Source of the DNA: an uncultured Alphaproteobacteria bacterium
GTDB lineage: Bacteria; Pseudomonadota; Alphaproteobacteria; Rs-D84
Reading direction: 5' to 3'
Assembly: GCA_949156565.1 (NCBI GenBank)
Contig: CASCZI010000001.1
Span: 118,856 to 182,855, forward strand
Length of the DNA: 64,000 nucleotides
Positions within the stretch are counted from its first letter, which is position 1. The number at the start of each line of letters is the position of its first letter. The translations under genes were made by a program, and so were the position numbers. Positions 40-18,989 of this stretch are shown piece by piece. The notes beneath the pieces are model-generated. The model saw nothing but the letters and a program-made list of their open reading frames with translations. It had not been told where the DNA came from and ran no database searches.

Positions 40-960
40 ATGTATAAATATTGGAAAATTCGCGAAATCATTGCCAAAATGGCCGCATTAGTTGGCACAA
101 ACCGTCATAAACGACGCCAAATTCGTGACAAAATTCGCTTTGCTGGATTGATTCAAAGCACCGGTCATTATGACATTGCCCGGAAAAAGTACCCAACGCC
201 AATTGCAATATCATTGTGTTTCAATGGCGATGGATATAAATTGGCCGCGGTATCAATTCGATCCCTGGTTATGGCGGCATCTGATCGGTGTGATTACCGT
301 ATTTATTGCATTGTTGATTCCACAGTGCATAGCGAGCATCGCCGCATCCTGGGGCGCATGGTGGCCGATACCCAATCAACAATTACATTTATTGATGCCA
401 ATCATGATTTTGACACCGCCCACCGACGCCGGTGGCCGGTGGCGGTGTATTATCGCATGATGCTGCCCAAACTATTGCCGGATATCGACCAGATTATTTA
501 TGCAGACATCGATACAATATTTTGTCGTGATTTAATTGATTTGGCCTGTTTAGACATGGGGGACAATTTGGTCGCGGGCGTGGCCGATTACGCCAACGGA
601 TATATAAATTCCGGCGTCTTGGTCATGAATTTGAAACAAATGCGCGATGAAAACATCTATGACACCTGGGTCCGGGCCGCCCATAAAAAAAATTGCAAGA
701 ACCCAGACCAAGACTTATTAAACTACACCACGCGCGGGCGAAAAATATTTTTGCCGTTGCGGTACAACTTTCAATCTATGTTGGGGACACGTTTATTCAA
801 GGTACATACCGATCGTGAATTCTTTGATTTGCGTCACCATCTGGTTGTTATGCATTATTCAAATTGGATGAAACCATGGCACCCCCATAACAGACGTCCC
901 ATATATTCCAATTTATGGTGGGATGCGGCGCGACAAACAGATCTGCGATTTGATCTATGA
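40..960 (+). CDS. Glycosyltransferase family 8 (LPS/LOS glycosyltransferase-like)
   Basis: Complete ATG ORF. GT8-type motifs present: DxD (YADIDTIF), NSGVLVMNL, and a C-terminal HY..W..KPW pattern. Confidence 0.7.
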   Translation: MYKYWKIREIIAKMAALVGTNRHKRRQIRDKIRFAGLIQSTGHYDIARKKYPTPIAISLCFNGDGYKLAAVSIRSLVMAASDRCDYRIYCIVDSTVHSEHRRILGRMVADTQSTITFIDANHDFDTAHRRRWPVAVYYRMMLPKLLPDIDQIIYADIDTIFCRDLIDLACLDMGDNLVAGVADYANGYINSGVLVMNLKQMRDENIYDTWVRAAHKKNCKNPDQDLLNYTTRGRKIFLPLRYNFQSMLGTRLFKVHTDREFFDLRHHLVVMHYSNWMKPWHPHNRRPIYSNLWWDAARQTDLRFDL

Positions 961-3533: not shown

Positions 3534-3989
3534 TTATTTATACGTACAAGATTGGGTTATACTGAACCGGCCGGTTATATCATAATAGATTCCCGTCCCC
3601 AGATAACATTGCGATTTCGACGTCGCACCGACGGGGGATGTTCCCTTGGCCAATATCTTGCGGGATGCATCAATATATATATCTGTGGCCTTGGGACAGG
3701 GTAGACATACACCGACCTGATCATAATATCCCGCCCCGCATAGACTACAGTTACAGTCACCATTTTCTGTGTTTGTGATATTGACCCCATATCCCAGGTT
3801 ACATATACATTGATAACATGGGTATGTCATACATGCCATGCATGTGCCATTGGGATTGGTTATTGTCTGACGTATTCCATTAACAATCGGGAAATCTGTT
3901 CGGGTGCATTCGCTGCTACCTACACTGACCCCCATGGCATTCGCGTTCAAAAACACAATCGCCGCCACCAAGATAAATAATCTAAACAT
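3534..3989 (-). CDS. Secreted cysteine-rich protein with ephrin-receptor-like (GCC2_GCC3-type) CxxGYY...CxxCP repeat
   Basis: Internal ATG gives a signal peptide (MFRLFILVAAIVFLNANAMG). The mature part has about 17 Cys, including CSLCGAGYYDQVGVCLPCP. Confidence 0.5.
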   Translation of the reverse strand: MFRLFILVAAIVFLNANAMGVSVGSSECTRTDFPIVNGIRQTITNPNGTCMACMTYPCYQCICNLGYGVNITNTENGDCNCSLCGAGYYDQVGVCLPCPKATDIYIDASRKILAKGTSPVGATSKSQCYLGTGIYYDITGRFSITQSCTYK

Positions 3990-4011
3990 GACATCCCCCA
4001 ATCGAATAAAA

Positions 4012-4041
4012 ACCGCCGCGAAATGGGCGGTCGGGATGTTA
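4012..4041 (-). terminator. Hairpin plus T-run immediately upstream of the cysteine-rich gene start
   Basis: On the minus strand: CCGCC-GCGAAATG-GGCGG followed by TTTTTA. Confidence 0.35.
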
Positions 4042-4307
4042 GAAAAATCATATTCATGAAATGACCGCGCAGATTTTAGGATAAACCCCTGTGGTATAAC
4101 TGCGCCAACCCGACCCGTGTCGGGATGGTTGTAGACACAACCGAAATTGGATACCCGTCGTGCACACGTGCACAACGTCATGAATATGGGTTTTCTAAGC
4201 CCCGAATCCCCGTTCCCACGGAAATTCGTTTGTTATTTTATCACGCCAATCATGAAAAGACAAGTGGGCATTCACGCCCCATTACCAAATCATGACCGGC
4301 GACAAGT

Positions 4308-4961
4308 TCACAGAAAATCAAAAGAGATAAGTTTATTCTGGGCGGCACGCCACAAAACCACATCAATATATCCCCGGGGCATATCCGTCACGGCAACCAA
4401 TGCATTAAACATATCATCACATGCCGCCCGCACATCCGGATCCAAATGAGCATTGTTGATTTTCGCCGCCAATGCCGGATTTCGTGCATAAAGCGTGCCC
4501 AGACGTTGTATCCAAATGTCATATTTTACCACATCTTCGCCCAGATTCCGCCCCAGGTGATGCGCGGTAATACGCCCGATATGGGGCAATTGGGCCAAAT
4601 AATTCAAACGCGCATCCACACCCCGGCATGCATAATATCCCGCACAGAATGTCACGCGATCACGCCATATCCGATCAATGGCAACGGTTTTGTTTTTGTT
4701 ATGGAATATTTGATAGAGTTGCCCCGCATCCGCCCCCCGGCGCAATGCGTCACAAATCAAGGTGTGAATCCGCCGGGCCGTATTTTGGGAAAAACCACCG
4801 GCCAAGATAACATACGCACAATGATCGGCAAATTCGTCGGGCGTGCACCGTCGGGGATGCGCCAGATTTTCGCGAATCTGGTCAAAGGACTGGACATCAT
4901 TGTCCAGTCCCATTTGGCGCAATCGCCCATCAAGTTCCCAAAACCATTCGGCGTCAAACAT
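4308..4961 (-). CDS. HhH-GPD superfamily DNA glycosylase-like protein
   Basis: Helix-hairpin-helix / Gly-Pro loop / Asp signature LPHIGRITAHHLGRNLGEDVVKYDIWIQRLG. No Fe-S cysteine cluster. Confidence 0.45.
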   Translation of the reverse strand: MFDAEWFWELDGRLRQMGLDNDVQSFDQIRENLAHPRRCTPDEFADHCAYVILAGGFSQNTARRIHTLICDALRRGADAGQLYQIFHNKNKTVAIDRIWRDRVTFCAGYYACRGVDARLNYLAQLPHIGRITAHHLGRNLGEDVVKYDIWIQRLGTLYARNPALAAKINNAHLDPDVRAACDDMFNALVAVTDMPRGYIDVVLWRAAQNKLISFDFL

Positions 4962-4969
4962 ATAAAATC

Positions 4970-7369
<2,400 letters not shown>

Positions 7370-7448: not shown

Positions 7449-7730
7449 ATGACAGAAACAAAAGAAGATTACTTTACCAAAGATGATTATTTATCACCCA
7501 CCAAGGCGGCCATAAAATTCAAAGAATCACGAAAACTGGTCCAAGATTTAATGACCGAAATTTACCGGAAAAAAATGACGTTTAATATTGGTTCAAAAAA
7601 ACGGATTCTGGTCATATTAAAGCATTCTGCCAAGGCAAATCTCCGCAACATGGCTAATTTACGGTTACATCCATTAGGAATTGAGATTTTTCAAGAATTA
7701 TTGACCCAGGCCAAGGACAAGAGCAAATGA
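7449..7730 (+). CDS. Small hypothetical protein (93 aa), first gene of a two-gene cassette
   Basis: ATG start downstream of a TATAAT (7417-7422). Lys-rich. Overlaps the next gene by ATGA. Confidence 0.45.
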   Translation: MTETKEDYFTKDDYLSPTKAAIKFKESRKLVQDLMTEIYRKKMTFNIGSKKRILVILKHSAKANLRNMANLRLHPLGIEIFQELLTQAKDKSK

Positions 7731-8296
7731 AATTCAAACTTCTTTATTTCGGCGATATTTTAATTAATCCCAAAAAACGGGCCCAACACATTTCGGACAT
7801 CCGGATGCAGTTTCACCCCCAACTCAAAAAATTGGTTGAACATCAACCGTGGAACAATTTAACACGGTATATGATGCCCGGTGCCACAAAAAGTCCCGTT
7901 TCCACCAGACATATTGGCGGTATTAATTGGAACCCCATTATTACACCCAATTTAAAATTAATCGCGGAATTGGATATACAAATGTTACATCCCGAAATTG
8001 TGGGCGTACCCCATACAGACATCGATAACCGGGTAAAAACACTGCTCGACGGGCTGCGATGCCCCCAAAATGAACATGAAATTGGCACCAATACGCCGCG
8101 CGATATTGGACCGATTTATACGCTTCTGGATGACGATTATTTGGTAACCAAACTGTCTATTAACACCAGTCACTTGTTATCCACCGATATATTTAATTGC
8201 TATAACTGTCGAACACCGGATACGGTCTTTATGATGATTGATGTCAATGTCCGTGTGGCCGAAGGGACGTTGGAAAACCTGCCCTTTATGGTGTAA
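7727..8296 (+). CDS. Hypothetical protein (189 aa), second gene of the cassette
   Basis: Translationally coupled (ATGA overlap). No recognisable motifs. Followed by a long-stem terminator. Confidence 0.5.
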   Translation: MKFKLLYFGDILINPKKRAQHISDIRMQFHPQLKKLVEHQPWNNLTRYMMPGATKSPVSTRHIGGINWNPIITPNLKLIAELDIQMLHPEIVGVPHTDIDNRVKTLLDGLRCPQNEHEIGTNTPRDIGPIYTLLDDDYLVTKLSINTSHLLSTDIFNCYNCRTPDTVFMMIDVNVRVAEGTLENLPFMV

Positions 8297-8302
8297 CAAA
8301 AA

Positions 8303-8366
8303 AACCGGCCGATGTCCACCCACAAACGTCGATGATTTTTTTGGGTGGACATCGGCTGGTTTTTTA
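8303..8366. terminator. Bidirectional rho-independent terminator / long inverted repeat
   Basis: 20-bp stem (AACCGGCCGATGTCCACCCA / TGGGTGGACATCGGCTGGTT, one G-U pair). About 19-nt loop. A-run upstream, T-run downstream. Confidence 0.6.
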
Positions 8367-8443
8367 TTTATCCCCGTATTTCTTTTATATTAATTCCATA
8401 ATCATCCCCCCGGGGGATTGTTTGACGGCGCAGTGGGGGTTAA

Positions 8444-9514
8444 TTATACCAATGCGGCGGTAATTTGATCCTGCATCTGGAATGTGCCCAAGACGACCCA
8501 CGCAATGATCGCCGATACCAGTAAAATTCCCATTGAATTCATGACATTGGATATAGATTCCATTCGACGAATAGATTCGGCCAAATAATCATTGGCCACA
8601 CGTGACAAATTACGATCAAATTCGTTCATTTCTGCATAAATCGCCAAATCACCAATAATTTCGTCATCGGGGAAATCGCGCCCTGTTTTGATCAATGCCG
8701 CCCCCAGATTGTCCCCCCCCACGATATAGCGCAGGGCGGCATTTAAAATACTGCGTAAATAAGGGTTTGAATTGTCGGCCAACATACGCATGGCATCAAC
8801 CACCGTCACGCCCGATGCCACCATCGCCGATAATGACATCAACCATCCGACCGATGCCTGAATCTTATAAATGCGCCATGGGGGAAATTTATCAAATTTT
8901 GCCCGCAAACGCCCGGCCCAGTTCGGCAAACTAACCGTGATGACAATAACACCAATTACAAACGATGCCGTTAAAACAAACCAATAACGTGACGCCATAT
9001 CCGCCAACCAGATCAGTGATGCCGCCGATCCGCGCCATACGATACCGGGCCCCGCCGCATCGGCCAATGGTGGCACCAGATATAATCCCACCATAATAAT
9101 GATTCCCACCGTCAATGCCAACAAGAACAACGGATATGTAATGGCCGACATCATGGCCCGCTTGATCCGGCCCGTGCCATCAACAACACGTCCAACGTTT
9201 TCCAACGCCACCACCAAATTAGACAAATTTCCCGATGTCACCAATAATGTTTCATCCATCGGAACCCATCCACGTGTCGCCTCAGAAAAGGTCATCCCCC
9301 GTTCCAGGTTTTTTTGCCATTCGCGCATCACAATGGCAAATGGTTCATCCGGTTTGGCCCCCCCCTTAGATTCGATCATTTCAATTCGCCCCAGTGCATC
9401 CATCAACGTAAAATCATTCCGCAACAGGGACGCCAATTTTCGGCATACAGACATGCGGCGTCCGGTATTTAACCGAAAGGATAATTTCGCATAGAGTCGT
9501 TCAAGGCGTTCCAT
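8444..9514 (-). CDS. GspF/PilC-like (T2SS F-family) inner-membrane platform protein; PilR(R64)/BfpE/TcpE-like
   Basis: About 356-aa polytopic membrane protein with several hydrophobic segments. Immediately downstream of the GspE-like ATPase. Start moved to the internal ATG (MERLERLY) one nt after the ATPase stop. Confidence 0.55.
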   Translation of the reverse strand: MERLERLYAKLSFRLNTGRRMSVCRKLASLLRNDFTLMDALGRIEMIESKGGAKPDEPFAIVMREWQKNLERGMTFSEATRGWVPMDETLLVTSGNLSNLVVALENVGRVVDGTGRIKRAMMSAITYPLFLLALTVGIIIMVGLYLVPPLADAAGPGIVWRGSAASLIWLADMASRYWFVLTASFVIGVIVITVSLPNWAGRLRAKFDKFPPWRIYKIQASVGWLMSLSAMVASGVTVVDAMRMLADNSNPYLRSILNAALRYIVGGDNLGAALIKTGRDFPDDEIIGDLAIYAEMNEFDRNLSRVANDYLAESIRRMESISNVMNSMGILLVSAIIAWVVLGTFQMQDQITAALV

Positions 9515-9515
9515 C

Positions 9516-11141
9516 TTAATATACCCCCGGTTGATCCAACAATCCGACCCAACGTTCCAATTCATCCACCCCAATAATTCCCGACAGCATTAATTCCATC
9601 GCCGATTCTTTAAGGGTTCGTCCCCCCAGATTTTCCAGCCAATACCGCGCCGCGCCATCGGTATTTCCCGACAAGGCCATTTGTAAAAATTCAGAATTGG
9701 GAATGATAATTTCACCCGCCTTGATCCGCCCCAGCGTACCCGTCCCCCGGCATTCTTCGCACCCGGCCCCACGGATATACACCTGGCGCAGGCCCAATTC
9801 CCCAAACGCATCTTTGACCCGCCGATATGCCGGATGATTGGGATGATCGATCAAACGTTCCCGGCAATACGGACATAATTTCTTAAACAGACGCATCGAT
9901 ACCAAACCGCGCATCATTGTTTCTTCTTTTAGTTTGAACCCCTCTACCCCCATGTCCAGCAATCGCGTCAATGCCGCCATGGCAGAATTGGCGTGTAATG
10001 TGGTCCACACATTGTGTCCTGATAATGCCCCCTTAACCGTTAATTGCGCGGCCGACAACGTACGGATTTCCCCCACCATTAACGTATCGGGATCACTTCG
10101 CAGGGCGGCGGCCAGTGCCTCTGTAAACTTTTCTTCGCGCATTTCTTCGTTGGATGCATTGACAACCGGCATTTGATGCGCGCCAAAAATCTTTTGTTCC
10201 GCGGGATCTTCGACAGTAATCAGATTAATTTCATAATGTCGTTCTTTCAGCATTAACGACATGTTGCGAACCAACGTTGTGGATTTTCCCGAACTGGTTG
10301 GGCCGGCAACCACCACCAATCCCGTCGGAAAAGAGCGCAAACGCATCAACAGCTTTTGTTCATATTCGCCAAATTCTTGGGCGGTTTTGATCCCTTCGCT
10401 TGGGTTATCATAAAGCAGGCGCATCACCACATAACGTGATCCGAATGCGATGGGATTAAATTGCATACGTATCCCCAAAATCCCCACCGGCAGGTATAAA
10501 TCCTTGGTCCCACGCAGGGGTGTTCCCCCATCTTTCTGGGCCGATTGGTATTCATTTTGGGCATAATTCGAATTCGAAATATCGGCCGATGCAAATGCCG
10601 CCCGAACAAATGATTCCCCCCATTGTGAATTATATTCCAAGACGGGTTGCATACTGCCATCAATGCGGAAATAAATGGTGGTTTGATCGGCCACTTCTAT
10701 ATGAATATCCGATACTTTCTGGGCGGCGGCCTTGGCAATGATATCTACGAAATCTTTTTGCATTTGGTTGTCATAATCGCCACGGGCCGATCCATCACCC
10801 ATATGTTCCCGATAAATTTTATAAATGGCCGCAACCAAACCCAAATCGGCATAAAATGGTTCGCGCATGGGTCGATCTTGGGCGTGTAATAAATCCAAAA
10901 ACGCCAAGACCCGTCCATCATACCGATGGGTACGGGAAATGATAATTTGCCCCCCCGAAAAATACGCAATTAATCCCTGGGCATCGGGGGGTAATGCCAA
11001 CGCCCCGCCCGCCGCCGTCATCAATCGGTTATTATCCCCCAATAAAAAGTCGGCAATATCACGGTTTGATCCGGCCGCCACGGCGGGGGGAACCGATAAA
11101 TTTGATGTATCCTGCAATGATTTATTTTTATCCTGGGCCAT
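9516..11141 (-). CDS. GspE/PilB-family secretion/type IV pilus assembly ATPase
   Basis: Walker A GPTSSGKST. Asp box and His box present. Tetracysteine CPYC...CEEC. 541 aa with an N-terminal extension. Confidence 0.85.
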   Translation of the reverse strand: MAQDKNKSLQDTSNLSVPPAVAAGSNRDIADFLLGDNNRLMTAAGGALALPPDAQGLIAYFSGGQIIISRTHRYDGRVLAFLDLLHAQDRPMREPFYADLGLVAAIYKIYREHMGDGSARGDYDNQMQKDFVDIIAKAAAQKVSDIHIEVADQTTIYFRIDGSMQPVLEYNSQWGESFVRAAFASADISNSNYAQNEYQSAQKDGGTPLRGTKDLYLPVGILGIRMQFNPIAFGSRYVVMRLLYDNPSEGIKTAQEFGEYEQKLLMRLRSFPTGLVVVAGPTSSGKSTTLVRNMSLMLKERHYEINLITVEDPAEQKIFGAHQMPVVNASNEEMREEKFTEALAAALRSDPDTLMVGEIRTLSAAQLTVKGALSGHNVWTTLHANSAMAALTRLLDMGVEGFKLKEETMMRGLVSMRLFKKLCPYCRERLIDHPNHPAYRRVKDAFGELGLRQVYIRGAGCEECRGTGTLGRIKAGEIIIPNSEFLQMALSGNTDGAARYWLENLGGRTLKESAMELMLSGIIGVDELERWVGLLDQPGVY

Positions 11142-11145
11142 GGGT

Positions 11146-11883
11146 TTAATTTGCGCCCCCGATGTTTAAATGCTGTTGATTGCCATCGCGTTCAAATACA
11201 ACCCCATCATCAAGAGATATGGCCCGCACCGTATATCCATCCAATGTTTTTCCCACAGAAATACGCCGCTGTTGCCCGTTATTTAAATCTTCGATTGTGG
11301 CGGCCAATTGGTTGCCGGCCCCAATGACATTTACCAAACGCCACCGCGTGGCAATGGAATCAATGGCATCAGAATCATCGTTTTGGGCCACAGATGTCGT
11401 GACCGGCATTGGGGCCGGTGCATTTGCCATGGCCGATACTTCGCGGGCCAGACGTTCTTTTTCCGCACCTAAACGGGCGGCTTCGGCCTCTAACTTGGCT
11501 TTTTGAACCTCGAATTCTTGTTGCTGTTGTTCGGCACGGCCGGACAAAGTGTCTAATTCCATTTGTAATTTAATTTTTTCTGCCGCCAGGCGATTTAATT
11601 CCAAATCCAATTGGGCCCGTTCTTTTTCCAATTGCATGACCACTTTTTCTTGTTCAAGTGTGGTGATTTGATCGAACAACGACCCATCCACGTCATAGGA
11701 TGCAATGGCGTCGGCCGCAACTTGTTCCATGATATCATCTTCGGTTGTGACCATATCTGGGACGGAATCAACATCGATGGTTTCAACCATATCAATGTCG
11801 ACATCCGCCATGGCCGGTATGACCGGTAAAAACATTGCCATACACACCATCACCCACATCAGATTACGGATTTTATTTCGCAT
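11146..11883 (-). CDS. Periplasmic coiled-coil protein, PilP/GspC-like candidate
   Basis: N-terminal signal/TM segment, an acidic stretch, a long coiled coil (LEQEKVVMQLEKERAQLDLELNRL...), and a C-terminal beta-rich domain. Confidence 0.35.
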   Translation of the reverse strand: MRNKIRNLMWVMVCMAMFLPVIPAMADVDIDMVETIDVDSVPDMVTTEDDIMEQVAADAIASYDVDGSLFDQITTLEQEKVVMQLEKERAQLDLELNRLAAEKIKLQMELDTLSGRAEQQQQEFEVQKAKLEAEAARLGAEKERLAREVSAMANAPAPMPVTTSVAQNDDSDAIDSIATRWRLVNVIGAGNQLAATIEDLNNGQQRRISVGKTLDGYTVRAISLDDGVVFERDGNQQHLNIGGAN

Positions 11884-13174
11884 AGATTATCACCTCATAG
11901 TTCCAGGTTCTGTTGCCGGCATTCCAAACGCATCGCGTCATATAGACACCGGAAAATTCATCAAAGATACGCATAAACGCCATGGGCGTCAATTTTGATG
12001 ATGCCGCAATTTCAACAACCGATAAATGCGCGGTGTCGACCCCATTACTTAACGTATCGATTACAATGTTGGTATCGACCGGGGTTGCGATCTGTTGAAA
12101 GGCGGTGGTTACATCACGCACAATGGTATCGGCATCGCGTTCATCCAATGATGCGCCGGTCCCCAATTGGGGTAACCGCGCCCGCACCGATATCGCCGAA
12201 TCCGAATTTTCAACCACATACGCCCCGGGCATTAAATCACCCGCCACCGCATAAAATTCACCCAATGTGCCAAACGTGCGCGTGAACATGACCGATGCGT
12301 ATTCTTCGCCACATTCAACCGATGTCTGGGTCCATCCCAAAACCGGTTGCATTAAAAATCCCATCGCGTTAAAGCATACCTGGGCCCGGGCCATGGGATC
12401 GGGTAAATGATCATACGGCATAACCAATGGTGGTGGGGGCGTTGGTTTTTGAATATCAAATTGAACATCTAATTCTTGGTTTTTTTGTTCAATCTGACGC
12501 TTGTACTCGGCGGCCAGTTCGGGATTGATCGTCGAAACCTGGGGACGGGGGGATACCATTTCCGCAATCGGCACCCGAAAAAAGTAAAGCAATACATAAA
12601 TAAATCCCCCAATCAGCGCCGCCGACAAAATATTGGCGCGCACACGACTGATCATATGCAAAATGCCCCGATTGCGACCGGCCATAATATCGTCAATACG
12701 ACGTTCCACCGCGCGTGGCATGGCCCATGATTCTGGGGCAAAGAATGCACCCCAATCAGGAATCTGGGCCAATTCAACATAACGATCGCGCGCCACAGCT
12801 TCGTCATTAAATAATTTATCTTCTAAAATAATGCCGTTACGAACCGCCACCAGGTAATAGCCGCCCGTCACCCGAAACACCGCCAAAAATGATGAAAATT
12901 CCCCGAATGCATCCACAACACCGGCCGCGGCCGATGCCATGCCGGCGCGGATCCCCCCCTGATGTGGGGCCAATCCAATCATTGAACGATATTCGGTATA
13001 AAGGGTATATTTCTTGTCAATACCACGTGCCAATTGACGCGCATAATTGCGTGGGGTATATCCAACACCCATCGGCTGCCACAGCAGGCCAACGGCGTAT
13101 TTGCGACGACCAATTGAAATATACTGATATGTCACACGGCATCTCTCTCTGATGTTAAATGAATTATAACACAT
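11873..13174 (-). CDS. Bitopic assembly protein, PilO(R64)/BfpC/GspL-like candidate
   Basis: About 430 aa with a single central TM helix (ILSAALIGGFIYVLLYFF). Position and size match pilO in the R64 pilO-P-Q-R order. Start uncertain: the ORF-track start is TTG. Confidence 0.35.
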   Translation of the reverse strand: MCYNSFNIRERCRVTYQYISIGRRKYAVGLLWQPMGVGYTPRNYARQLARGIDKKYTLYTEYRSMIGLAPHQGGIRAGMASAAAGVVDAFGEFSSFLAVFRVTGGYYLVAVRNGIILEDKLFNDEAVARDRYVELAQIPDWGAFFAPESWAMPRAVERRIDDIMAGRNRGILHMISRVRANILSAALIGGFIYVLLYFFRVPIAEMVSPRPQVSTINPELAAEYKRQIEQKNQELDVQFDIQKPTPPPPLVMPYDHLPDPMARAQVCFNAMGFLMQPVLGWTQTSVECGEEYASVMFTRTFGTLGEFYAVAGDLMPGAYVVENSDSAISVRARLPQLGTGASLDERDADTIVRDVTTAFQQIATPVDTNIVIDTLSNGVDTAHLSVVEIAASSKLTPMAFMRIFDEFSGVYMTRCVWNAGNRTWNYEVIIYAK

Positions 13175-13313
13175 TTTGATCGTGAAACGCAAACACAGAA
13201 TATTGTCCCCATCGATTAAAACGTAAATTTAAAACAGGTGGGCCATTGATGCCTGATCTTTGGGAAATCAAGGATTTATAAAAATTCAGGAATCCGATGG
13301 ATTCCTGAGATAA

Positions 13314-17670: not shown

Positions 17671-18351
17671 TTAATCTTTATACTCGCTTTCCAACTTGGT
17701 ATAGGTCAGATGGTCCATCCACGTTCCATCCGGCATTAAATGCGAATCCCGAACACACCCATCCAGGTGGTATCCGGCATTTTCTATTGATTTTTTACTG
17801 TGCAGATTTCCCGCCATGCATTGCCGCGTCACACGATGAACCTTTAACTGTTCAAAGGAAATTTGTTCCAAGGTATTATGTACTTCTTGACTAAATCCAT
17901 GTCCCCAGGCCGACTTTACAAACCACACGGCTGCAAATTGTATCGTCTTGCTTTGCGGCCAATAATGAATCCGTTGATATCCAACCAAATTATTATTATG
18001 AAAAATATACCACACCACGCCATTATCGGCGGCCATTTTGTCATCATTTTTCATGATTTCCAGAACATCATCCACAGATTCCGGCAACGGTTTATCATAT
18101 TTTGGCGAATAGTTTATAAATGCAAAATCCCCACGGTTTTCAGCCTTTAACGTATTCCATATCAATTCTGCGTTTTCCGCACTTGGCTCCAAGAGACGCA
18201 GTTCCAGCCTGAGTGTTTTTAGATTTTTCTTAAATAAATCAAAAAATTTTTCCATACGTCGTGTATCCCTGGGGTTAATCGGTATAATTTTATACTCTTT
18301 TTTGACGAATTTCAATAATTTCCCCGCCAATGGCGGGGGATTAATTTTCAT
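17671..18351 (-). CDS. GNAT family N-acetyltransferase (RimJ/RimL-like)
   Basis: Acetyltransferase fold motifs present (VGYQRI...QFAAVWF...WGHGF). 226 aa. Confidence 0.7.
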   Translation of the reverse strand: MKINPPPLAGKLLKFVKKEYKIIPINPRDTRRMEKFFDLFKKNLKTLRLELRLLEPSAENAELIWNTLKAENRGDFAFINYSPKYDKPLPESVDDVLEIMKNDDKMAADNGVVWYIFHNNNLVGYQRIHYWPQSKTIQFAAVWFVKSAWGHGFSQEVHNTLEQISFEQLKVHRVTRQCMAGNLHSKKSIENAGYHLDGCVRDSHLMPDGTWMDHLTYTKLESEYKD

Positions 18352-18989
18352 AAACAGATGATTCTATTGAGCTTATAACCAGTGTATATGCCGCATGTTT
18401 GGGAATACGTTGTGAATCCCATTCGCGTCTGATATCCATTTCCCATTTGACGGGTGCAAACGGGGAGTTAAAGAAATCACTATACAGATGACCCCGCTGA
18501 CTTTCGGATAAAAATCTTATTGTATGGTCAACGGCCCCCGCTTTTTAGGCGGGAATATTTGTTTAAAGTGCCATATTCTAGCACCCTGTATAGCGAAGTT
18601 CTTTACGCTTCGGCATCCTTTTTGGATACAATATAAAAATGACTAAGGTCAAGTTTCCAAATCCAATAACATTAATGTATCATTCCGCAATCCCACGTTG
18701 TATTTATTATTTGCGTCATATATAATTTATTAAAATGAATGCGATTAACGGTGTTAAAAGTAAACAAGATTTTGATAAAATGACCATACCCTTGTGCGCG
18801 GTCATTTAGTATCCATGGTTGCAACAAAAACTTATCTTGCCCGGTACCCCGATCCCGTGTCCGTCATTTACAAATTCTTAATGCCCCACTTACAATTATT
18901 TTTGGGCCCATACAGCGAAATGATATAGCTCTGGATTTTTATTACCATGTCACGTATCATGTAAATTGTACACCCATAGGAGAATCATT

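Follow-up and report, generated by a model that had tools for sequence, protein, structure and literature searches.

The 64,000-nucleotide (nt) stretch of an uncultured alphaproteobacterium analyzed here (contig CASCZI010000001.1 of assembly GCA_949156565.1; hereafter, the window) raises the question of how a small cysteine-rich gene, P1 (3534..3989, minus strand), is expressed when a terminator-like hairpin stands directly before it, and what its product and that of a second cysteine-rich gene, P2 (50909..51643, minus strand), may do. An earlier interpretation made from the letters alone (the sequence-only reading) had taken the two genes for copies of a eukaryote-like secreted protein of the ephrin-receptor-like or tumor necrosis factor receptor (TNFR) type. 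We found that the terminator before P1 forms the 3′ end of a conserved structured RNA, not described before, which stands in front of many genes of this kind, and that, as judged by sequence comparison, P1 and P2 are members of two separate families without a Pfam or NCBIfam model and not copies of one gene. The explanation that we favor overall, by a modest degree, is that both genes encode exported, disulfide-rich binding proteins and that P1 is controlled by read-through of an RNA leader.

A conserved structured RNA upstream of P1

The hairpin, placed ~25 nt upstream of P1 by the sequence-only reading, was confirmed at 4011..4032 (minus strand). It resembles an intrinsic terminator, with a U-run extending to ~4003, and ends 21 nt before the P1 ATG; between the two there is only a Shine-Dalgarno-like GGGGGA (3994..3999, minus strand), read from the sequence 4 nt before the ATG. 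The hairpin forms helix 7 of a structured RNA of ~220 nt (4001..4232, minus strand), and its stem is kept with compensatory changes. The 320 nt that separate P1 from the gene upstream have a predicted fold of −128.9 kcal/mol (z = −5.5 against shuffled sequences). Directly 5′ of the RNA lies a sigma-70-like promoter, TTGTCT-17-TAAAAT with a TG extension (4235..4263, minus strand), and other copies of the RNA carry a promoter-like site at the same position (TTGAAA-17-TAAAAT or TATAAT). No promoter-like site was found between the terminator and the P1 start; the earlier observation that there is no room for a promoter before P1 was correct, and the hairpin terminates an upstream RNA with a promoter-like site of its own.

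A 46-nt stretch around the hairpin matches another alphaproteobacterial metagenome-assembled genome (MAG; locus L020), where it lies directly before a cysteine-rich signal-peptide gene of the P2 family (family 2). The intergenic regions of P1 and L020 align throughout, with compensatory changes, and a search with the invariant 21-mer returned nine more copies in metagenome contigs and one in viral contigs. The consensus, derived from six sequences, contains 72 base pairs (bp) in seven helices, which make up a 5′ hairpin (GGGA loop), a long closing stem together with three inner hairpins, and the terminator. Specifically, 94% of the alignment cells were paired, compared with ~44% when pairing partners were slid by 1–3 columns, and 23 pairs had changed on both sides, compared with 2 to 6 in the slid controls; none of 500 shuffles reached the observed values. 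In L048, L049, and L051, the 5′ hairpin loop and its flanks read ACAGGGAUGU, which we take to resemble the CsrA-binding consensus. The window copy keeps only the GGGA loop at 4209-4227, not the whole of ACAGGGAUGU, and the Shine-Dalgarno sequence after the terminator contains GGA.

At the gathering level, no Rfam family matched the window or 10 related loci. A weak match to GcvB (24.5 bits) was dismissed, an attC-like site was rejected by eye on the order of its core sites, and a dispersed repeat was set aside, as the RNA region is not repeated within the window. The nearest likeness is to the small RNA (sRNA) sRNA-Xcc1 (RF02221): in the 3′ domain of our RNA, as in sRNA-Xcc1, a closing stem of GGUCGGGG and CCCCGACC encloses two hairpins, and both RNAs occur upstream of a gene and also in mobile DNA. 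In the literature, sRNA-Xcc1 has been placed upstream of symE in integron cassettes and, in APSE phages, before an ORF (open reading frame). However, the RF02221 cut-off of 53 bits was not reached (45.2 bits for L043, 29 bits for the window, and no match for the other copies). Unlike the 87-nt sRNA-Xcc1, the RNA described here measures ~220 nt, its additional parts being a 5′ hairpin, a long closing stem, one more hairpin, and a terminator, and it comes from a different bacterial class.

The covariance model of the RNA (R1), which scores 139.7 bits on the copy before P1, was run over the collected loci, among which those of family 2 had been fetched by protein similarity alone and not by the RNA. 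Within this set, the RNA precedes all distinct loci of the P1 family (family 1), i.e., the window, L003, and L004/5, with sense-strand matches that end ~−25 to +30 nt from the gene start. It was also found before the family-2 genes of 12 loci (L010, L011, L013, L014, L016, L020, L021, L023, L027, L031, L032, and L034), in each case as a full-length match on the sense strand that ends ~−25 to +30 nt from the start codon; a 5′-truncated match precedes the family-2 gene of L035. In addition, the RNA stands before other exported proteins, including two lipoprotein-like ORFs and further signal-peptide proteins, one of which is a tail-fiber-like protein that is also found on a viral contig. At L003, a signal-peptide ORF of another kind (4694-4990; 98 amino acids [aa], 14 cysteines) lies beside the family-1 gene, and the RNA leader stands before the pair.

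Proposed leader control of P1 and its alternatives

Because no promoter-like site follows the terminator and a promoter precedes the RNA, P1 is expected to be made by transcription through the leader, and the terminator would therefore make its expression conditional. P1 would have no promoter of its own; transcription would start ~240 nt upstream, pass through the ~220-nt leader, and reach the gene only by reading through the last helix, as in attenuation or riboswitch-like control. We consider the RNA to be probably a cis-regulatory attenuator or riboswitch-like leader, on the grounds that a conserved, covarying structure lies in sense orientation immediately upstream of ORFs. The order of its parts, i.e., promoter, conserved multi-helix domain, intrinsic terminator, and Shine-Dalgarno sequence with ORF, is that of terminator-type riboswitches and attenuators, and the likeness would extend to a segment with two predicted, mutually exclusive pairings. 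Unlike in those systems, the genes downstream encode exported proteins and not a metabolic pathway.

The segment in question comprises 10 nt, GGUCGGGGUG (GGUCGGGUUG in the window copy). In one possible pairing it joins an upstream CCCC-containing segment to form helix 5, which leaves the terminator free; in the other its partner would be CACCCCGACC, a segment that shares nucleotides with the terminator's 5′ strand, and this second pairing is also the closing stem in the sRNA-Xcc1 model. The 10-bp GGUCGGGGUG/CACCCCGACC pairing could thus serve as an antiterminator, and we infer from it a terminator/antiterminator switch together with a signal that sets it.

Several findings speak against such control or limit its reach. 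The antiterminator conformer is 6–20 kcal/mol less stable than the terminator conformer in five copies, so that termination would be the default state, and read-through would have to be brought about by a protein, a ligand, or folding kinetics. Among the compared copies, the antiterminator helix hardly varies, which deprives it of covariation support. No R1 leader was found upstream of P2, and ~8 family-2 loci with enough upstream sequence gave no or a very weak R1 match. Moreover, weaker R1 copies (27–52 bits) precede unrelated cytoplasmic genes (GNAT, GT8, and XRE-like). Two of these concern the window directly: a diverged second copy (18432..18635, minus strand; R1 32.3 bits, E = 5e-8 with filters off), in which the U-run is not clear, lies 80 nt before a GNAT acetyltransferase ORF (17671-18351), and a further copy (L002 10166-10358), which falls just outside the window on its left side, precedes a glycosyltransferase family 8 gene (window 40-960).

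The strongest competing explanation takes the RNA for an independent, trans-acting sRNA gene that has its own promoter and terminator and happens to favor variable intergenic regions, with P1 expressed from an unrecognized promoter or by incidental read-through. It would account for the 3′ domain shared with sRNA-Xcc1, which has been described as a trans-acting sRNA in mobile DNA, for the presence of several copies per genome, some of them before unrelated genes and one in a viral contig, and for the far greater stability of the terminator conformer. It accounts less well for the position of the strong copies, which are always in sense orientation, 0–30 nt before a start codon, with only a Shine-Dalgarno sequence between, and which mainly precede exported proteins of unrelated families; nor does it supply the promoter-like site that is missing from the terminator to the P1 start. 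On this evidence we regard a free-standing sRNA as rather unlikely and prefer the leader.

A bolder version of leader control can be proposed only tentatively. In this version, the RNA would be a new riboswitch or attenuator class through which gut Alphaproteobacteria, among them partner-dependent lineages with reduced genomes, and at least one of their phages switch an entire set of exported proteins coordinately in answer to one signal. The repertoire would comprise two unrelated cysteine-rich families, lipoproteins, and the tail-fiber-like protein, and the cysteine-rich proteins would be cell-contact molecules.

The P1 and P2 protein families

The P1 coding sequence runs from an ATG at 3989 and encodes 151 aa, including 13 cysteines (3534..3989 includes the stop codon). 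Public gene calls place the start at 4181, which gives 215 aa; the 64 added codons (3990-4181, minus strand) overlap the structured RNA. Because the family hidden Markov model (HMM) aligns from the ATG at 3989, homologues begin at the signal peptide, and the extension runs into the RNA, we prefer the 151-aa protein and regard the longer call as probably an annotation error.

As the sequence-only reading had stated, both ORFs are real and encode cysteine-rich proteins with signal-peptide-like N-termini. Judged by inspection and hydropathy only, P1 (residues 1–18, MFRLFILVAAIVFLNANA, 3936..3989, minus strand, with an A-x-A site followed by MG) and P2 (MPKKTVGFLGAVLVLPVLPGLAA, followed by TC) both show the basic n-region, the hydrophobic h-region, and the small-x-small site of a Sec (SPI) signal peptide, with a maximum 10-residue hydropathy of 3.4 and 2.8, respectively. 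The same layout recurs in homologues, and every P1 homologue starts with M-K/R and continues with a hydrophobic stretch; no lipobox was seen on inspection of the P1 and P2 N-termini. Cysteines account for 8.6% of P1 (n = 13) and 6.6% of P2 (n = 16), compared with a median of 1.0% among window ORFs of at least 250 aa.

The mature P1 protein consists of two unequal parts. The N-terminal part is variable and cysteine-rich (residues 19–83; 3741..3935, minus strand) and is modeled with low confidence (predicted local distance difference test [pLDDT], 45–66), while the C-terminal module is conserved (residues 84–150; 3540..3740, minus strand) and is modeled with high confidence (pLDDT 88–98) as β-hairpins. 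Among 36 relatives, Cys 28, 50, 63, and 79 are kept in 83–94% and C63, C79, C84, C95, C98, C128, and C148 in 92–100%, with Cys 53, 58, 61, and 81 being lineage specific; 9 of the 13 cysteines are conserved across the family. The conserved cysteines stand at fixed spacing, as in disulfide-rich modules, which bears out the cysteine spacing expected by the sequence-only reading. P2 (244 aa) follows the layout of its family, in which the signal peptide is followed by ~160 aa rich in cysteine and then by a conserved β domain of ~60 aa at the C-terminus, with longer forms adding cysteine-rich regions. Its 23 homologues have invariant cysteines, and 10 cysteines are invariant and 3 more nearly so (≥90%) across 23 sequences.

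The shared motif that had suggested two copies of one gene is real: translating the window in all six frames gave three instances of C..G[YF][YFW]-x(2-16)-C..C, each of them within P1 or P2, compared with a mean of 0.01 in shuffled sequences. The modules are less regularly repeated than proposed, with P1 containing one clear module and one degenerate one, and the idea of two copies did not survive comparison of the whole proteins (BLASTP E = 0.27; hhalign probability 22%), with the P1-family and P2-family HMMs each matching only their own gene within the window. The sole link between the families is at the level of the module, where the family-2 HMM matches one family-1 member (E = 3e-5) over the CxxGYYL..C..C part.

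When 1.84 billion representative proteins were searched exhaustively, P1 had 45 matches at E ≤ 1e-3, and in nearly all of these the alignment is confined to P1 residues ~83–150; an extra search with the profile of the P1 module added two further proteins. P0053 was rejected as a relative, as it matches only via many short repeated stretches. The P1-type module forms the very C-terminus of small (~100–280 aa), cysteine-rich signal-peptide proteins. The relatives with a named source come from MAGs labeled Alphaproteobacteria or Rickettsiales, apart from one labeled Muribaculaceae. The gene neighbors of the latter include DUF2155 (PF09923), which we take to be an alphaproteobacterial family. P1 itself has a single near-identical ortholog, whose genome shares 99.35% identity with the window over 10 kb, and the two genes differ by one synonymous and three non-synonymous changes, too few to call selection. 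The P1 module would define a family, not described before, of small proteins exported by gut Alphaproteobacteria.

For family 2, a scan of one genome per species identified 31 loci, all in gut or rumen MAGs (sources include roe deer and sheep) and nearly all labeled Alphaproteobacteria, some of them Candidatus Enterousia; no family-2 relatives were found in viral contigs. A single MAG from roe-deer reticulum, RGIG4808 (L010-L033), contains at least 17 family-2 loci, some of them tandem (L016, L014), and family-2 proteins reach 819 aa with five repeated regions (L034). Judging from these matches, the P2 family also appears undescribed, restricted to the same MAG lineages as the P1 family, and strongly expanded in some genomes. 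At least one further paralogue, P0022, is located in the genome of the window, ~183 kb away. P0022 (281 aa, L037) and P0015 (261 aa, L039) are divergent family-2 genes in different genomes; both are preceded by one and the same pair of genes (372 aa and 542 aa), and their downstream neighbors differ; this locus may be hypervariable or recombining. Candidatus Enterousia belongs to the order Rs-D84, whose members have genomes of ~0.75–1.6 Mb, lack many biosynthetic pathways as well as respiration, and presumably depend on a partner (PMC12306168). Some of the related MAG lineages of the P1 family, namely those in order Rs-D84, are accordingly reduced in genome size.

Module type and role of the cysteine-rich proteins

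The sequence-only reading had assigned the proteins to an ephrin-receptor-like or TNFR-type fold; a weak likeness of the module remains of this assignment, and membership of the window proteins does not. The known modules PF07699 (GCC2_GCC3) and PF23091 (TNFR_ELAPOR1_6th) share with that of P1 a short, cysteine-rich β-hairpin organization, C-x2-G-x-Y ... C-x2-C-P ... G-A-T-S ... C. The P1 module reads CxxGYY..CxxCP-(15-aa insert)-GTS..GAT...CY..G.YYD..G.F.....C.Y and differs from both in two respects: (i) an insertion, ~15 residues long in the family (..IYTDSARTT.ARG), which follows CxxCP and precedes TS..GAT...CY..GTYYD..G.F.I...C.Y, and (ii) a conserved C-terminal half (CY..GTYYD..G.F....C.Y) that always stands at the end of the protein. 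Unlike proteins with PF07699 or PF23091, those of the P1 and P2 type are small bacterial signal-peptide proteins without other domains.

The profile comparison proposed with that assignment gave a divided result. At a PF07699 gathering score of 23.1 bits, P1 and P2 fall below the cut-off (14.8 bits, E = 0.025 for the isolated P1 module), and the P1 relatives P0031 (36.8 bits), P0029 (29.7 bits), and P0048 (25.4 bits) lie above it, with the match of P0048 extending into the conserved C-terminal module. Among whole P1-family members, 5 of 36 match PF07699 and 6 of 36 match TNFR_ELAPOR1_6th; when the C-terminal modules are isolated, 13 of 27 match the former weakly (best E = 3e-4) and 8 of 27 the latter. 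The P2 family contributes a single match to PF07699 (1 of 23 members, E = 0.017). Three relatives without the insertion (P0061, P0063, and P0073) read as canonical repeats.

Arguing against the assignment, whole P1 and P2 match nothing in Pfam or NCBIfam, even at E ≤ 10, and the fold searches gave no significant match; the cysteine-rich domains of Eph receptors and chains of the TNFR family that head the non-significant lists do, however, favor the module type at a weak level. Neither a profile nor a fold match to the TNFR cysteine-rich domain (PF00020) was reached by the window proteins. The Protein Data Bank (PDB) sequence search gave a weak match to TNFRSF21 (E = 0.014), which also points to this module type but, together with PDB sequence or profile matches to designed Pizza proteins and the enterovirus 2A protease, was rejected as being at chance level. 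Likewise, the likeness to TNF-receptor cysteine-rich domains, including the poxvirus decoy CrmE, is not significant, and there is no sign of TNF-like ligands. We conclude that the modules of P1 and P2 are plausibly ephrin-receptor-like in type, while thresholds do not support membership of the window proteins. As part of the explanation favored above, and with the same modest confidence, the P1 module would be a divergent ephrin-receptor-like/TNFR-type β-hairpin repeat with a 15-residue insertion.

P1 would accordingly be a small Sec-exported, disulfide-rich protein with a cleavable signal peptide, a poorly conserved cysteine-rich stretch, and a conserved end module of ~67 aa, which might present the variable part. 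We infer Sec export, oxidative folding with disulfide bonding, and a binding function for P1 and P2 because of their signal peptides, conserved cysteines, repeat type, variable-plus-conserved layout, and paralogue expansion, as well as the presumed partner-dependent lifestyle of their bearers. The most likely role would be that of stable surface or extracellular binding proteins, i.e., adhesins or ligands directed toward a host or partner cell.

This role has to be weighed against one in the periplasm or envelope, with the cysteines serving metal binding or redox chemistry. The odd number of cysteines in P1 (n = 13) counts against full disulfide pairing and in favor of such chemistry, as do the CxxC and CxC spacings among its cysteines; the bacteria that carry these genes live anaerobically in the gut, which may limit oxidative folding, and no dedicated secretion genes were seen in the gene neighborhoods of P1 or P2. 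We nevertheless consider this alternative improbable, since the cysteine spacing is that of disulfide-rich repeats in a region modeled as stacks of β-hairpins, and the presence of at least 17 loci in one genome, together with variable N-terminal parts, fits surface proteins better than enzymes or cofactor carriers.

PF07699 is regarded as mainly eukaryotic, and its rare bacterial cases have been ascribed to transfer (PMC6993872). On this ground, and given the weak PF07699 and TNFR matches, the host-associated gut habitats, and the reduction of some related lineages (Rs-D84), P1 and P2 could be thought of as Eph or TNF receptor mimics acquired horizontally from eukaryotes and serving as effectors that target a protist or animal host; we regard this as very improbable, given that the 1.84 billion representative proteins contain no eukaryotic homologue (a termite protein, P0030, is an artefact of ten identical repeats adding up), that the insertion is lineage specific and the C-terminal half has no known counterpart, that the GC content of both genes resembles that of the surrounding window and each stands alone among housekeeping genes (P1 between gyrB and a uracil-DNA glycosylase gene, P2 between parB and a biotin carboxylase gene), and that no ligand-binding or signaling domains accompany the modules. 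The eukaryote-like origin and recurrence in giant viruses suggested by the sequence-only reading find no counterpart among the real homologues, all of which are small bacterial proteins from gut alphaproteobacterial MAGs.

A functional analogy to exported, disulfide-rich binding proteins may be offered by the variant-specific surface proteins (VSPs) of Giardia, which carry CxxC repeats and likewise combine many paralogues, a signal peptide, a variable cysteine-rich part with a conserved part, and dependence on a host or partner. Unlike VSPs, to which they show no homology, the P1 and P2 families have no membrane anchor, and no switching was seen in them; a few relatives give a weak VSP match.

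Gut Alphaproteobacteria of the Rs-D84/Enterousia type are uncultured, have genomes of ~1 Mb, and presumably rely on a partner, and to our knowledge nothing is known about how they contact it. Obvious candidates for this contact are the two undescribed families of exported cysteine-rich proteins, of which one has expanded to at least 17 loci within one small genome, and the RNA before many of these genes defines a putative regulon and a candidate new class of regulatory RNA. What is new here are protein families built on a known kind of module and a structured RNA of a known general kind that is at most distantly related to sRNA-Xcc1; what was unexpected is that, in gut bacteria about which little is known, one leader is shared by two exported cysteine-rich families that are unrelated to each other. 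P1 and P2 also illustrate that no recent transfer from eukaryotes is needed for cysteine-rich repeats of a "eukaryote-like" kind to make up native families in bacteria.

Elsewhere in the window, a type IV pilus/type II secretion-like cluster (T2SSF, T2SSE, PilO-like), followed by lpxC and lpxK, occupies 8444-13192 (minus strand). The T2SSE/T2SSF/PilO cluster and the lipopolysaccharide genes indicate a diderm envelope but show no link to the P1 and P2 genes. The convergent ORFs 7727-8296 and 8444-9574 are separated by a long inverted repeat with 33-nt arms (8294-8370). The loop of this repeat has opposite orientations in the window and in the 99.35%-identical genome (L002), and the element is probably a bidirectional terminator with loop inversion.

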